Shown here piece by piece: positions 1-34,161 of a DNA stretch of 34,161 nt. Numbering within the stretch: position 1 is the stretch's first letter; each line of letters begins with the position of its first letter. Where the stretch lies: the IMG/VR virus record IMGVR_UViG_2534681675_000021, one strand, 5' to 3'. Both the position numbers and the translations under genes were made by a program. Below the pieces are notes generated by a model that had not been told where the DNA came from, did no database searches, and was given only the letters and a program-made list of their open reading frames with translations. The stretch is from a virus. Taxonomy: Duplodnaviria; Heunggongvirae; Uroviricota; Caudoviricetes.

Positions 1-366
1 TTACTCCCCATCCCCGGGCAATAAGGGCGCGTGCGCTATCCACTTTTTTGCCCGTCCATATTCAACGGCTTCTTTGAGGAGTTCATTTTCCATCGTTTTC
101 TTGCCGAGCAGGCGCTGGAGTTCTTTAATCTGCTTCATGGCGGCAGCAAGTTCAGAGGCAGGAACAACCTGTTCTCCGGCGGCGACAGCAGTAAGACTTC
201 CTTCCTGGTATTGCTTACGCCAGAGAAATAACTGGCTGGCTGCTACACCATGTTGCCGGGCAACGAGGGAGACCGTCATCCCCGGTTCAAAGCTCTGCTG
301 AACAATTGCGATCTTTTCCTGTGTGGTACGCCGTCTGCGTTTCTCCGGCCCTAAGACATCAATCAT
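1..366 (-). CDS. insC: IS2 transposase OrfA (InsC), 121 aa
   Basis: Translation [41 protein letters not shown]...PLLPGDGE matches IS2 OrfA from memory. The track ORF extends upstream; the true ATG is at 366. Confidence 0.85.
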
Positions 367-457
367 CTGTTCTCCAATGACTAGTCTAAAAACTAGTATT
401 AAGACTATCACTTATTTAAGTGATACTGGTTGTCTGGAGATTCAGGGGGCCAGTCTA
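1..457 (-). mobile_element. IS2 (IS3 family), partial copy truncated by the window edge; terminal inverted repeat at about 417-457
   Basis: Reverse complement of 361-457 reads the IS2 left end (TAGACTGGCCCCCTGAATCTCCAGACAACCAGTATCACTTAAATAAGTGATAGTC...GTCATTGGAGAACAGATGATTGATGTC). InsC ORF is complete; the downstream orfB lies outside the window. Confidence 0.85.
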
Positions 458-654
458 TCCTCAATGTACGATTCCAATTATATTAAATAATTCCTATGAG
501 GTTATCTGTGATAGGCCTCCATGTCTGTATTTCCTACTTATGTAGGAAATTCTGCACAAAACATTTATTATAATCCTATTCAATAATGACAATGATGTCA
601 TTATTATATTTCAACACTAGAGAGTGTCGTTGGTGTTTAATGGGGGAAGGTGAG

Positions 655-972
655 ATGAAAAAGACAGCTGCTATATCATTAATTAGTGTTTTTCTTATGT
701 CTGGTTGTGCTGTGCATAATGATGAGACAAGTATCGGTAAATTCGGTCTTGCCTATAAAAGTAATATCCAGCGTAAACTCGATAACCAATACTACACTGA
801 AGCCGAAGCATCTTTAGCCAGGGGCAGAATATCTGGTGCGGAAAATATAGTGAAAAATGATGCAGCTAATTTCTGTGTTACTCAGGGCAAAAAAATGCAG
901 ATAGTTAACCTGAAGACTGAAGGGGCAGGATTACATGGCGTCGCGCGTCTGACATTCAAATGTGGAGAGTGA
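655..972 (+). CDS. yegR: Small secreted lipoprotein-like protein, 105 aa, probably host YegR
   Basis: Shine-Dalgarno GGAAGGTGAG before ATG at 655. N-terminus MKKTAAISLISVFLMSGC is a lipoprotein signal with lipobox Cys. The 105-aa length and position next to the cyaR/yegQ att locus fit E. coli yegR; identity is from memory, not searched. Confidence 0.5.
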   Translation: MKKTAAISLISVFLMSGCAVHNDETSIGKFGLAYKSNIQRKLDNQYYTEAEASLARGRISGAENIVKNDAANFCVTQGKKMQIVNLKTEGAGLHGVARLTFKCGE

Positions 973-1312
973 GAATAGATTCAAGACTACCATGGACACA
1001 TCCATTTTTATCTCTGATAAGGTATTCTTCAACACCATTATTGAATGTGAGTAATAATGACAAGCAGATAGATGAAACTACAGCAGAATTTTTATTTTAT
1101 GCGGCTATCAGAAAATGATGGCATAAATATTCCTATGCTTTAGCTTCATTTTTTGTAAGCGTCAAACATGCGCGTTCTGGGTGTGCGTAGCCGGACCCTG
1201 TGCGAGCACGATGCCGTTAAGTGAAAGGCATCGTGCTATGAAGGGGGATTCTATCGATGTGGTCAATGGAAGACGGTCACCTGGGATCAATCCGTCTCTA
1301 TGGTTTATGCAT

Positions 1313-1339
1313 AAAAAATAAGCCCGTGTAAGGGAGATT
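1313..1339. other. attL core (27 bp, AAAAAATAAGCCCGTGTAAGGGAGATT)
   Basis: Exact 27-bp direct repeat of 32629-32655, about 80 bp from the int stop. Matches the P2 att core as I recall it. Confidence 0.85.
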
Positions 1340-1418
1340 TAGGGTGTCACCAGTAGGGGCTTTCAACGGTACAATGCGGGTTTGAGCGGCATAAATTACC
1401 ACTGAAAGCCCTTAAACG

Positions 1419-2432
1419 TTACTCTACTGTGGACACTGTGTGGACACTCTCGACCTCAGTACCACCTCTTAGCGGATTAAGAGAAATGGCGTCCTGAAGG
1501 TACTCTGGCGCAAAATGAGCGTAAACCATAGTTTGCTCAATCCGCGTGTGACCTAGTATCCGTTGTAGCGTGATAATACTTCCTCCATTAATCATGAAAT
1601 GAGTGGCAAAGCTGTGCCTTAGTGCATGTGTAGCTTGCCCCATTGGCAAATCCGGTTTTATTGCTTTCATTGTTCGTCTGAAGCGAGGGTAATCAGCATC
1701 AGGGAATAAAAAACCTCGTTTGTTATCCGCGATCATTTTGGCAACAGCCTCTGAGATCGGGACGGTGCGTGGTTTGTTTGTTTTCGTTTTAACAAACGTG
1801 ACGCGGTTATGGATGATATTTTCTGCTTTCAAACGAGCTGCTTCTCCCCAACGTGCTCCAGTACTCAGGCAAAGAATCGCAATCTTTTTGTTGTCGCCGT
1901 CAAGAGCAGCAAGCAGTAAGGCAATTTCTTCCTGCGTGAGATAGCCTGTGTCTGGTTTTTCCTCCTTAAGCCTTTTTGTCCCTCTGATAGGGTGCTCACC
2001 AAAGAATAACTCCGCTTCAATCAGGGCTGTAAACATGCCGCTAATACATGTTAAATCACGATTGATACTCGAAGGTTTAATACCCTGACTTCTTCGGGTG
2101 GCGCAGTACTGGCTGATAAGCGATTTCGTAATTTGAAATGCGCATGGGTCATTCGTTATTTTTGTGAAGATTTCAATTTTTCCAAGATTAGATTTCCCAT
2201 GCTCTTCGTGTTTACCCTTTAAATCCCACCAGATCTGTGTCAGCTCCGACAGACGTCGCTTGTCTTTTGGTTTTGATAGCCATTCTTTATTGTGGTGGTT
2301 GTACAACGTGTATTTCTCGAAAGCGACAGCTTCGCTTTTCTTATCAAACTTCCTACGGATGCGTTTTCCATTACGTCCAGTAGGGCGGATGTCCACTTCA
2401 TATCGACCATCATCGAGTTTTTTGATTGCCAT
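1419..2432 (-). CDS. int: P2-type tyrosine integrase, 337 aa
   Basis: 337 aa; C-terminal catalytic region with HALRHSFATHFMINGGSIITLQRILGHTRIEQTMVYAHF (R...HxxR...Y tyrosine recombinase signature); adjacent to attL. Confidence 0.95.
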   Translation of the reverse strand: MAIKKLDDGRYEVDIRPTGRNGKRIRRKFDKKSEAVAFEKYTLYNHHNKEWLSKPKDKRRLSELTQIWWDLKGKHEEHGKSNLGKIEIFTKITNDPCAFQITKSLISQYCATRRSQGIKPSSINRDLTCISGMFTALIEAELFFGEHPIRGTKRLKEEKPDTGYLTQEEIALLLAALDGDNKKIAILCLSTGARWGEAARLKAENIIHNRVTFVKTKTNKPRTVPISEAVAKMIADNKRGFLFPDADYPRFRRTMKAIKPDLPMGQATHALRHSFATHFMINGGSIITLQRILGHTRIEQTMVYAHFAPEYLQDAISLNPLRGGTEVESVHTVSTVE

Positions 2433-32308: not shown

Positions 32309-32527
32309 ATGTTTCATTGTCCTTTATGCCAGCATGCCGCACATGCGCGTACAAGTCGCTATATCACTGACACGACAAAAGAGCGTTATCACCAGTGCCA
32401 GAACGTGAATTGCAGCGCCACGTTCATCACTTATGAGTCGGTACAGCGATACATCGTGAAGCCGGGAGAAGTCCACGCCGTAAGACCGCACCCGTTGCCG
32501 TCAGGGCAGCAAATTATGTGGATGTAA
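32309..32527 (+). CDS. ogr: Ogr late-gene transcriptional activator (zinc finger), 72 aa
   Basis: 72 aa from MFHCPLCQHAAHARTSRY; C-x2-C ... C-x4-C zinc-binding motif; GGAAGAGG Shine-Dalgarno; last gene before att. Confidence 0.9.
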   Translation: MFHCPLCQHAAHARTSRYITDTTKERYHQCQNVNCSATFITYESVQRYIVKPGEVHAVRPHPLPSGQQIMWM

Positions 32528-32540
32528 TTACAAACAGGAA

Positions 32541-32564
32541 GCCCCTCAGTCGAGGGGCTTTTTT
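32541..32564 (+). terminator. Rho-independent terminator after ogr
   Basis: GCCCCTC-AGTC-GAGGGGC perfect 7-bp stem followed by TTTTTT. Confidence 0.7.
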
Positions 32565-32628
32565 GTCGATGTGGTCAATGTGTGGACGTGACCAGAAATA
32601 AATCCTTTTATTTCATTGTATTACGCGT

Positions 32629-32655
32629 AAAAAATAAGCCCGTGTAAGGGAGATT
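32629..32655. other. attR core (27 bp), identical to attL core
   Basis: Exact repeat of 1313-1339; lies within the 3' end of cyaR. Confidence 0.85.
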
Positions 32656-32715
32656 ACACAGGCTAAGGAGGTGGTTCCTGGTACAGCTAGCATTTTATGG
32701 GTTATGTTTTTCAGC
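32629..32715 (-). ncRNA. cyaR: CyaR (RyeE) small regulatory RNA, about 87 nt
   Basis: Minus-strand sequence GCTGAAAAACATAACCCATAAAATGCTAGCTGTACCAGGAACCACCTCCTTAGCCTGTGTAATCTCCCTTACACGGGCTTATTTTTT matches CyaR as I recall it, with terminator hairpin and U-run; located next to yegQ as in E. coli. Confidence 0.8.
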
Positions 32716-32799
32716 GAAACGGATGATAACCTTAATAAATGCAGCTGTATGTGATCGGTTTCTAAGAATTTTCCATCCGGGAAAAATAATCGAAATTAA

Positions 32800-34161
32800 T
32801 CACTTACCGTGGGGGTTACGCGTGGTTTCCCCGGAGAAATTTCGCATCAGCAGCGCGTAATTTAGCTCAAGATCCTGCGGGACCGGGATCCACACAGTAT
32901 AACCATCGCCAGGTGCGACCGGCATTGCTTCGCCTTTGGCGTTTTCCATATGCTCAAGGGTAAAGTTAATGTTCCCTTGCGGCGTCATCAGCTCAAGGCT
33001 GTCGCCAACGGAGAATTTATTTTTCACCGCTACCGCCGCGAGGTCGCCCTTGCGCTCACCGGTAAACTCACCAACAAACTGCTGGCGGTCAGAAACTGAA
33101 TAACCGTATTCGTAGTTCTGATAATCGTCGTGAGTATGACGACGCAGGAAACCTTCGGTATAGCCACGATGCGCCAGACCTTCCAGAGTTTCCAGCAGGC
33201 TGGTATCGAATGGTTTTCCCGCAGCTGCGTCATCGATAGCTTTACGGTAAACCTGCGCGGTGCGTGCGCAATAGTAGAAAGATTTTGTACGACCTTCGAT
33301 TTTCAGCGAATGCACGCCCATTTTGGTCAGGCGTTCAACGTGGGCGATAGCGCGCAGATCTTTCGAGTTCATGATGTAAGTGCCGTGCTCATCTTCAAAC
33401 GCGGTCATATACTCGCCCGGACGCTGAGCTTCTTCGATCATAAACACTTTGTCGGTTGGCGCGCCGATACCCAGCGTCGGCTCAACATTTTGCACCGGAA
33501 TCGGCTCGTACTTGTGCACGATGTTGCCAACGTCATCTTCTTTCCCTTCCTGGACGTTGTACTCCCAGCGGCAGGCGTTGGTGCAGGTGCCCTGGTTCGG
33601 GTCGCGCTTGTTGATATAGCCAGAGAGCAGGCAGCGACCGGAGTAGGCCATGCACAGCGCGCCGTGAACGAAGATCTCTACCTCCATATCCGGCACCTGA
33701 TTGCGGATCTCTTCAATCTCTTCCAGCGACAGCTCGCGAGAGAGGATCACGCGGGTCAGGCCCATTTGCTGCCAGAATTTCACCGTCGCCCAGTTCACGG
33801 CGTTAGCCTGTACCGAGAGATGGATCGGCATTTCAGGGAAGTGCTCACGCACCAGCATAATCAGCCCTGGATCGGACATTATTAGCGCATCCGGCCCCAT
33901 TTCCACCACCGGTTTCAGGTCACGGATAAAGGTTTTCAGCTTGGCGTTGTGCGGTGCAATGTTGACCACAACATAAAACTTTTTCCCCAGCGCGTGGGCT
34001 TCATTAATGCCGAGCTGAAGATTTTCGTGGTTGAATTCGTTGTTGCGCACACGCAGGGAGTAACGCGGCTGGCCCGCATAAACAGCATCTGCGCCATAAG
34101 CGAAAGCGTAACGCATATTTTTCAGCGTTCCCGCCGGGGAAAGGAGTTCCGGTTTAAACAT
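32800..34161 (-). CDS. yegQ: U32-family peptidase-like protein YegQ (TrhP, tRNA hydroxylation protein), 453 aa, host gene
   Basis: Complete 453-aa ORF (MFKPELLSPAGTLKNMRYAFAYGADAVYAGQPRYSLR...); U32 family features; higher GC and host-like codon usage; adjacent to cyaR. Confidence 0.85.
   Translation of the reverse strand: MFKPELLSPAGTLKNMRYAFAYGADAVYAGQPRYSLRVRNNEFNHENLQLGINEAHALGKKFYVVVNIAPHNAKLKTFIRDLKPVVEMGPDALIMSDPGLIMLVREHFPEMPIHLSVQANAVNWATVKFWQQMGLTRVILSRELSLEEIEEIRNQVPDMEVEIFVHGALCMAYSGRCLLSGYINKRDPNQGTCTNACRWEYNVQEGKEDDVGNIVHKYEPIPVQNVEPTLGIGAPTDKVFMIEEAQRPGEYMTAFEDEHGTYIMNSKDLRAIAHVERLTKMGVHSLKIEGRTKSFYYCARTAQVYRKAIDDAAAGKPFDTSLLETLEGLAHRGYTEGFLRRHTHDDYQNYEYGYSVSDRQQFVGEFTGERKGDLAAVAVKNKFSVGDSLELMTPQGNINFTLEHMENAKGEAMPVAPGDGYTVWIPVPQDLELNYALLMRNFSGETTRNPHGK

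Follow-up and report, generated by a model that had tools for sequence, protein, structure and literature searches.

Both the P2 attachment site at the sRNA gene cyaR and the ogr-D' remnant that E. coli K-12 carries there are already known (PMC3032704; genome annotation). This remnant, PR-X, consists of ogrK and the D' fragment yegZ, spans 629 bp beside cyaR and is annotated in NC_000913; it is a deletion remnant of a P2-like prophage that retained attR, and it shares its locus and att core with the DNA described here. P2-type integrases bind pairs of direct arm repeats with the consensus tgTGGaCa, located on both sides of the core (PMC3448106), and the repeats of the P2 P arm have a period of 11 bp. 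Reuse of one RNA-gene 3' end is seen in decayed ('grounded') prophages and in stacked degenerate att repeats at tRNA and sRNA hot spots. In the literature searched, we found nothing linking yegR, or the flank of the P2 attB 'locI', with an older P2-type relic; an earlier notice of extended similarity between locI and attP is possible in a 1992 paper on P2 attachment sites.

Here we analysed a window of 34,161 nt, meaning the whole stretch of DNA under study, which contains one complete P2-like prophage together with both host junctions. The original prediction, made from the letters of this window, was that the host-side flank of attL is a diverged P arm left by an earlier P2-like integration. 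Our analysis supports this and suggests, with a probability that we put at roughly 85%, that an old element with a P2-type integration module left its right attachment junction, a degenerate P arm joined to an intact core, at window 1252-1339. The features on which the argument draws are given below; L004 denotes the prophage-free locus of E. coli MFDS1022581 and L001 the K-12 locus.

1..456, minus strand: partial IS2; the window begins within this element, and an IS3-like element IS2 family transposase is annotated in matching E. coli records
457..654, no strand: AT-rich relic interior 5' of yegR, 100% identical to L004 3003-3200
655..972, plus strand: yegR (annotation), a small lipoprotein ORFan inside the relic
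973..1148, no strand: segment of ~176 bp, present in the alleles of the window, MFDS1022581 and UPEC957C and deleted in K-12 and E. coli C
1205..1237, no strand: hairpin with an 11-bp stem, located where the ogr terminator stands in P2-type P arms
1252..1312, plus strand: degenerate P arm (P*), probably of an older element; 44/59 bases as in the resident P arm
1313..1339, plus strand: att core, which is the attL core of the resident prophage, the probable right-hand (attR) core of the old relic and P2 attB 'locI'; identical to 32629-32655
1340..1450, plus strand: P' arm of the resident prophage, the reference used to recognise the P'* arm of the relic
1419..2432, minus strand: int of the resident prophage (ORF, 337 aa)
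32309..32527, plus strand: ogr of the resident prophage (translation), with a terminator hairpin at 32540-32559 and a T run downstream
32566..32628, plus strand: genuine P arm of the resident prophage; its arm-type repeats are TGTGGTCA at 32570-32577 and TGTGGACG at 32581-32588
32629..32655, plus strand: attR core, equal to the 3' half of the cyaR terminator
32632..32717, minus strand: cyaR sRNA gene (Rfam RF00112, 100.7 bits, E 7.7e-21)
32800..34161, minus strand: yegQ/trhP, the host gene beyond cyaR (annotation of L004 and L001)

Results

P-arm-like sequence on the bacterial side of attL

The resident prophage has a GC content of 52%, and over its int-to-A region it shares 98% identity with Peduovirus P22H4 and phage 9W and 97.9% with P2. 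Its P' arm repeats read TGTGGACA, at 1428-1435 and 1439-1446, and its 27-bp att core, AAAAAATAAGCCCGTGTAAGGGAGATT, is the same at both junctions. Upstream of each core stands a copy of the 15-mer TCGATGTGGTCAATG, at 1254-1268 on the left and 32566-32580 on the right, with 44 nt and 48 nt respectively between the end of the 15-mer and the core. These are the only copies in the window with two or fewer mismatches, against a chance expectation of 0.11 matches, and two copies were obtained in 0 of 100 shuffles. All coordinates originally given for the hairpin, the 15-mer copies and the cores proved exact.

When 1199-1339 was aligned with the right end of the prophage, the stretch from the 15-mer through to the core could be aligned, the flank and the resident P arm sharing 44 bases over these 59 nt. 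Considered separately, the 44 nt between the 15-mer and the left core gave 30 identities over 43 positions in alignment with the phage P arm, a score equalled in only 5 of 2000 shuffles. Comparison with the cyaR-ogrK junction of K-12 gave a concordant result, with the genuine K-12 P arm and core matching window 1254-1339 at 79% identity over 91 nt (E 5e-13). Between the flank and the phage right end, no similarity was found 5' of the 15-mer, and none between B' and P' beyond the cores. The similarity is thus confined to one side, keeps its register and orientation and adjoins the core, which matches the expectation for a P arm.

Two arm repeats are found in the genuine P arm, and their fates in the flank differ. 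The first, TGTGGTCA, is contained in the flank 15-mer and is intact at 1258-1265, where it constitutes an arm-type site by sequence. The second is destroyed, reading GAAGACGG at 1269-1276 with 2 of 8 matches to the resident TGTGGACG; a degenerate second repeat would be as expected of a relic. We also compared the flank with a panel of P arms, taken from cyaR-integrated prophages of Citrobacter, Enterobacter, Buttiauxella and others that a scan of one genome per species had yielded. All follow one common plan, namely a terminator hairpin, (T)ATCGATGTGGTCAATGTGTGGACA, the AT-rich block GAAATAAATCCTTTTATTTCA and the core, and the relic flank fits this plan. A 17-mer, TATCGATGTGGTCAATG (1252-1268), is common to the flank and to the P arms of Citrobacter and Enterobacter prophages, whilst the closest match to the flank in the panel is the E. 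coli-type P arm.

The hairpin 5' of the left 15-mer has the arms AGCACGATGCC (1205-1215) and GGCATCGTGCT (1227-1237), separated by an 11-nt loop. Its folding energy is -28.4 kcal/mol (z = -5.5; equally stable shuffles, 0 of 200), and the hairpin is kept in all E. coli alleles examined. The two ends of the prophage had been described as sharing the same arrangement, and this stands as far as the geometry is concerned, the ogr terminator hairpin lying directly 5' of the right 15-mer copy. The gap from hairpin to 15-mer is, however, 16 nt on the left and ~6 nt on the right, and we found no sequence similarity between the left hairpin and the ogr terminator; terminator sequences do differ among the P2-type phages of the panel. 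With a GC-rich stem but no U tract (there is no T run on either strand, and a terminator scan of 900-1450 found no site), the left hairpin was rejected as an intrinsic terminator, and its proposed equivalence to the ogr terminator is not supported. Ogr or D coding remnants were not found in 972-1253. The one Rfam hit in the flank, to the purD motif at 1187-1286 and overlapping the hairpin, reached 26.2 bits (gathering score 41; E 0.017) and was judged to be a chance match.

A 28-nt block, TCTATCGATGTGGTCAATGGAAGACGGT, around the preserved arm site is invariant in 8 of 8 E. coli alleles compared. The same eight alleles otherwise differ at about 1 site in 8-10, with several deletions, and given this level of variation elsewhere in the flank the invariance of the block is weakly unusual.

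A second, degenerate core lies between yegS and yegR

If the flank is one end of an older element, its other end may be sought beyond yegR. The IS2 element cuts the relic, so that this end falls outside the window, and we therefore turned to the prophage-free strain MFDS1022581, whose flank is that of the window. Between yegS and yegR, L004 2799-2919 matches window 1311-1433, that is, the attL core and the P' arm, at 94 of 124 positions (blastn E 2.6e-16), with a local score of 91 as compared to 17.2 +/- 2.1 for shuffles. The segment comprises a degenerate core (core*), AAAAAATCAGTTCAAGGATGGGGAATT, which agrees with the intact core at 18 of 27 positions by direct count, followed by a degenerate P' arm (P'*) in which two arm repeats are still recognisable (ACTGTGGATTCAGCGTGGCAGC vs ACTGTGGACACTGTGTGGACAC). 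Both arms of a P2-type attachment site are hence represented by homologous sequence, core* and P'* being located ~1.06 kb to the left of the intact core.

In the least-deleted allele, the relic spans 1083 bp (L004 2801-3883), in the order core*, P'*, yegR, hairpin, P*, intact core, and its GC content is 39%, compared to 50-54% in neighbouring genes. All five aligned alleles retain core* together with the first ~20 nt of P'*. Most alleles, including those of K-12, C, UPEC957C and FDAARGOS_1077, have lost ~75 bp of P'*, the long form being kept in only 23 genomes. Similarly, 16 nt of the P-arm relic are deleted in most alleles, and that of the window is the least deleted.

The site is empty in many relatives

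To compare the locus across relatives, 185,579 species-representative genomes were scanned with a cyaR pattern, which yielded at least 120 Enterobacterales loci. Among the loci listed, YegQ is conserved beside cyaR in nearly all, the distance from the yegS start to the cyaR terminator is ~90-370 nt in most, and yegR is present only in E. coli. The spacer between yegS and cyaR is recognisably conserved in Enterobacteriaceae.

A close outgroup was Escherichia sp. E1V33, one of two other Escherichia species sampled, whose YegQ and YegS are 100% and 94% identical to those of E. coli and which has no yegR. Its yegS start and core are separated by 86 nt; the corresponding distances in E. coli are 84 nt to core* and 1140 nt to the intact core. 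In the sequence that follows the intact core on the right, E. coli and E1V33 agree at 172 of 177 positions. As the yegS-core* spacing in E. coli is close to the yegS-core spacing in E1V33, core* occupies the ancestral core position. The 1083 bp thus form an insertion between two direct repeats of the att core, its left end being a P' arm and its right end a P arm, a layout that is the signature of an integrated P2-type element. The emptiness of E1V33 does not tell precise loss apart from primary absence; because many genera are empty, ancestral emptiness is the economical reading.

Several further observations were made on these loci. The E. coli core reads GCCCGTGT (1324-1329 and 32640-32645), and E1V33, E. 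albertii and most genera listed read GCCTGCGT. In E. coli, the cyaR terminator therefore has the P2-type core variant in its 3' half, and the stem contains one G-U pair; this fits a terminator half supplied by a phage. At cyaR, E. albertii NBRC 107761 (L109) has a strongly decayed P2-like remnant of its own in the 3 kb to the left, comprising a P-arm-like flank that lacks the 15-mer and scattered fragments matching the resident int, early region and other parts. In Salmonella enterica subsp. diarizonae (L102), where yegS and cyaR are 2.9 kb apart, the core is preceded by P-arm-like sequence (TTAATGTGGTCAATAT...), possibly another relic, and the yegS-cyaR interval had no tblastx similarity to the resident prophage. 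Intervals of 0.65-4.4 kb between yegS and cyaR occur in Enterobacter (L018, L094, L095), Kluyvera (L029, L039), Raoultella (L087, L096) and loci L021, L058 and L074, most loci having ~100 nt. Across Enterobacteriaceae, elements seem generally prone to insert at the 3' end of cyaR, which would make it a hot spot.

The interior of the relic

The ~880-bp interior of the relic revealed no phage gene by blastx against the resident prophage or by blastn against 50,697 phage records. A 12-codon trace on the reverse strand, LESYIEDAIALL (L004 2986-3021), resembles APEYLQDAISLN of the resident Int C-terminus and is collinear within 24 nt, a resemblance that is not statistically significant. In the window, IS2 is inserted at the equivalent of L004 3002/3003 and splits this trace; window 457 corresponds to L004 3003, and window 457-475 completes the 12 codons. 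IS2 stands directly beside yegR in a comparable manner in only 1 of 5,426 genomes, that of strain DXMF6-3R.

The GC content of yegR is 40%, against 50-54% in the flanking genes, and YegR matches only Pfam PF27694 (YegR) and phrog_21109. Its homologues are almost confined to E. coli and Shigella. Two distant homologues were found, one (52% identity) in Enterobacter sp. BIDMC 29 (L128/L129), among IS elements beside an omptin gene, and the other (48% identity) as an isolated gene beside mug in a metagenomic enterobacterium (L130/L131). We considered yegR as a recognisable P2 cargo gene and rejected this, since phage-borne homologues occur only in records that include host flank and the distant homologues stand in non-P2 contexts. 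The gene behaves as a mobile ORFan and is presumed to be either cargo of the old element or a later arrival; from its position and composition alone, we infer that it may have come with the old element.

The relic is found throughout E. coli and underlies younger P2-like elements

Amongst 5426 complete E. coli genomes, the flank was found in 5418 and the yegS-core* segment in 5419, so that about 5,420 carry the relic. The window and MFDS1022581, which has no prophage and in which yegS, yegR, flank, core, cyaR and yegQ follow one another, have flanks that are 100% identical; in other prophage-free strains (L003, L127) the flank alleles are ~10% different. The original prediction had counted conservation of the flank in strains without a prophage against an earlier integration. 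Such conservation is indeed what we observed, but it does not discriminate, because the conserved flank may itself be the remnant; the outgroup empty site is the valid test and supports the reading.

The relic allele of the window (457-1339) is rare, with at least 95% identity in only 25 of ~5,420 genomes and 80-95% in the rest. So much divergence greatly exceeds the level normally seen in E. coli core DNA and would suit either a fossil drifting neutrally or deep allelic lineages. In E. coli FDAARGOS_1077 (L127), most of yegR is deleted, from the signal-peptide region to just 5' of the hairpin, whilst the hairpin, P* arm and core are kept.

The K-12 locus displays the layering directly. It reads full flank, first 19 nt of the attL core, D' fragment yegZ, ogrK, genuine P arm, core and cyaR, and its D'-ogrK-P arm block is 98% identical to the right end of the resident prophage. 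The original prediction pointed to a relic of this kind in K-12, but PR-X is not the older element: it lies between the older flank and cyaR and is therefore a younger, second event there, as is the resident prophage. The attL core of K-12 ends after AAAAAAATAAGCCCGTGTA and is fused to an internal site of gene D (yegZ), which gives the exact endpoints of the PR-X deletion; the annotated PR-X interval excludes the older flank.

In IMG/VR, the relic-type arm occurs in 116 contigs, with Int downstream in 115, YegR upstream in 107 and Ogr upstream in 0. This gene order indicates that the relic-type arm is always the host-side flank of attL and never the P arm of an extant phage, and many independent P2-like prophages adjoin the fossil. 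An extant phage with a relic-type P arm was sought by blastn against the 50,697 phage records and rejected, only records including host flank being matched. In four IMG/VR contigs, the phage-type TTACGCGT replaces TTATGCAT just left of the core in a flank that is otherwise relic-type; the substitution suggests that the fossil arm has exchanged sequence locally with genuine P arms. A junction query gave 6608 places in 5424 genomes, a figure that is not a clean count of occupancy, since the relic arm is matched by genuine P arms as well; roughly a fifth of genomes would carry an extra copy of the junction.

Discussion

Taken together, these observations could be explained by a succession of insertions at one RNA gene. 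An ancestor of E. coli would have acquired, at the 3' end of cyaR, an element with a P2-type int and att, which internal deletions would then have shrunk to the 1083 bp of the least-deleted allele. Its right-hand core, doubling as the 3' half of the cyaR terminator, would have been kept intact and so would still be available as P2 attB 'locI', whereas the left-hand core, having no such role, would have decayed to 18/27. Because only the inner core would remain a good Int substrate, later insertions would take place at the right-hand core, and P2-like phages would always land between the fossil and cyaR. Such stacking of younger elements inside older ones would produce an attL whose 'bacterial' arm resembles a worn P arm. 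The element was plausibly a complete phage, and it was presumably selection on cyaR that preserved the right-hand core.

The same sequences have to be weighed under other explanations. Chance, or an ordinary host regulatory element such as the yegR terminator region, would draw on the strong conservation of the hairpin 3' of yegR and on the sub-threshold purD match at 1187-1286. For 1252-1339 such an origin is already refuted by the shuffle statistics, by a similarity restricted to one side and one orientation and by the outgroup empty site, the purD score itself being below threshold. A P-arm-like stretch could also have been formed with no earlier integration, through homologous exchange or gene conversion with successive resident P arms or through imprecise excision, given that the flank and genuine P arms are similar enough to recombine and that the four TTACGCGT contigs suggest local exchange. 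We consider this highly improbable, as it leaves unexplained both the presence of core* and P'* 1.06 kb away, exactly at the ancestral core position, and the absence of the whole intervening segment from outgroups; nor is P'* confined to the rare long allele, its first ~20 nt and core* being found in all aligned alleles.

A further question is what kind of element was inserted. The relic might derive from a small integrative island or satellite that delivered yegR by means of a P2-type integrase and att arms, with no full P2-like prophage involved. P2-like features are limited to the att arms and perhaps 12 integrase codons, with an interior that lacks phage homology, as such an island would have it, and relatives of yegR are found elsewhere among IS elements and as isolated ORFans. 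However, every characterised element at this core, in E. coli and in other genera, is a P2-like prophage or its decay product, and the layout of the P arm, with arm repeats after a hairpin, is the one that P2-type phages show at their ogr-proximal end, so that we regard an island as unlikely. We therefore retain the right junction of an old element with a P2-type integration module as our preferred reading. As an object it is of an ordinary kind, a decayed integrative element at a hot spot, and the segment is best read as a molecular fossil with no demonstrated present function. It is doubtful that the fossil P arm is anything other than inert, although its arm site and hairpin could make locI an arm-assisted attB, or alter excision from an attL of the form P*-core-P'; if true, an arm-assisted attB would help to explain the strong preference of P2 for locI.

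On the preferred reading, the P2 site favoured in E. coli would be the surviving inner junction of an older P2-type element, with yegR inside it, and not pristine host DNA. The locus would thereby illustrate how layers build up at an sRNA-gene hot spot, where the core that completes the cyaR terminator stays in place and captures phages whilst the outer copy decays. In practice, prophage-boundary callers and definitions of attB at cyaR should expect a phage-like arm on the 'host' side, and the K-12 PR-X annotation should be taken to cover the youngest layer only.

Comparison with described systems places the fossil as follows. PR-X is 98% identical to the resident D-ogr-P arm and is young; the fossil is older, is present in essentially all E. 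coli, keeps both of its degenerate ends and no phage gene, and is not annotated as a prophage in any record examined. As compared to P2 attP/attR, with their 27-bp core and pairs of arm repeats (PMC3448106), the fossil has an identical core, an identical first P-arm repeat TGTGGTCA within the shared 15- to 17-mer and a similar spacing to the core (44 nt against 48 nt), and its P'* holds two recognisable repeats; it differs in its destroyed second P-arm repeat, an AT-rich block that is only partly kept and the lack of an adjacent ogr or int. As in grounded prophages at tRNA and sRNA genes, older elements are pushed away from the RNA gene and the outer att copy decays, with further cyaR remnants in E. 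albertii and other genera. Unlike these, the fossil is fixed species-wide, and what textbooks give as the 'bacterial' attachment site of a model phage is the inner junction of this fossil.
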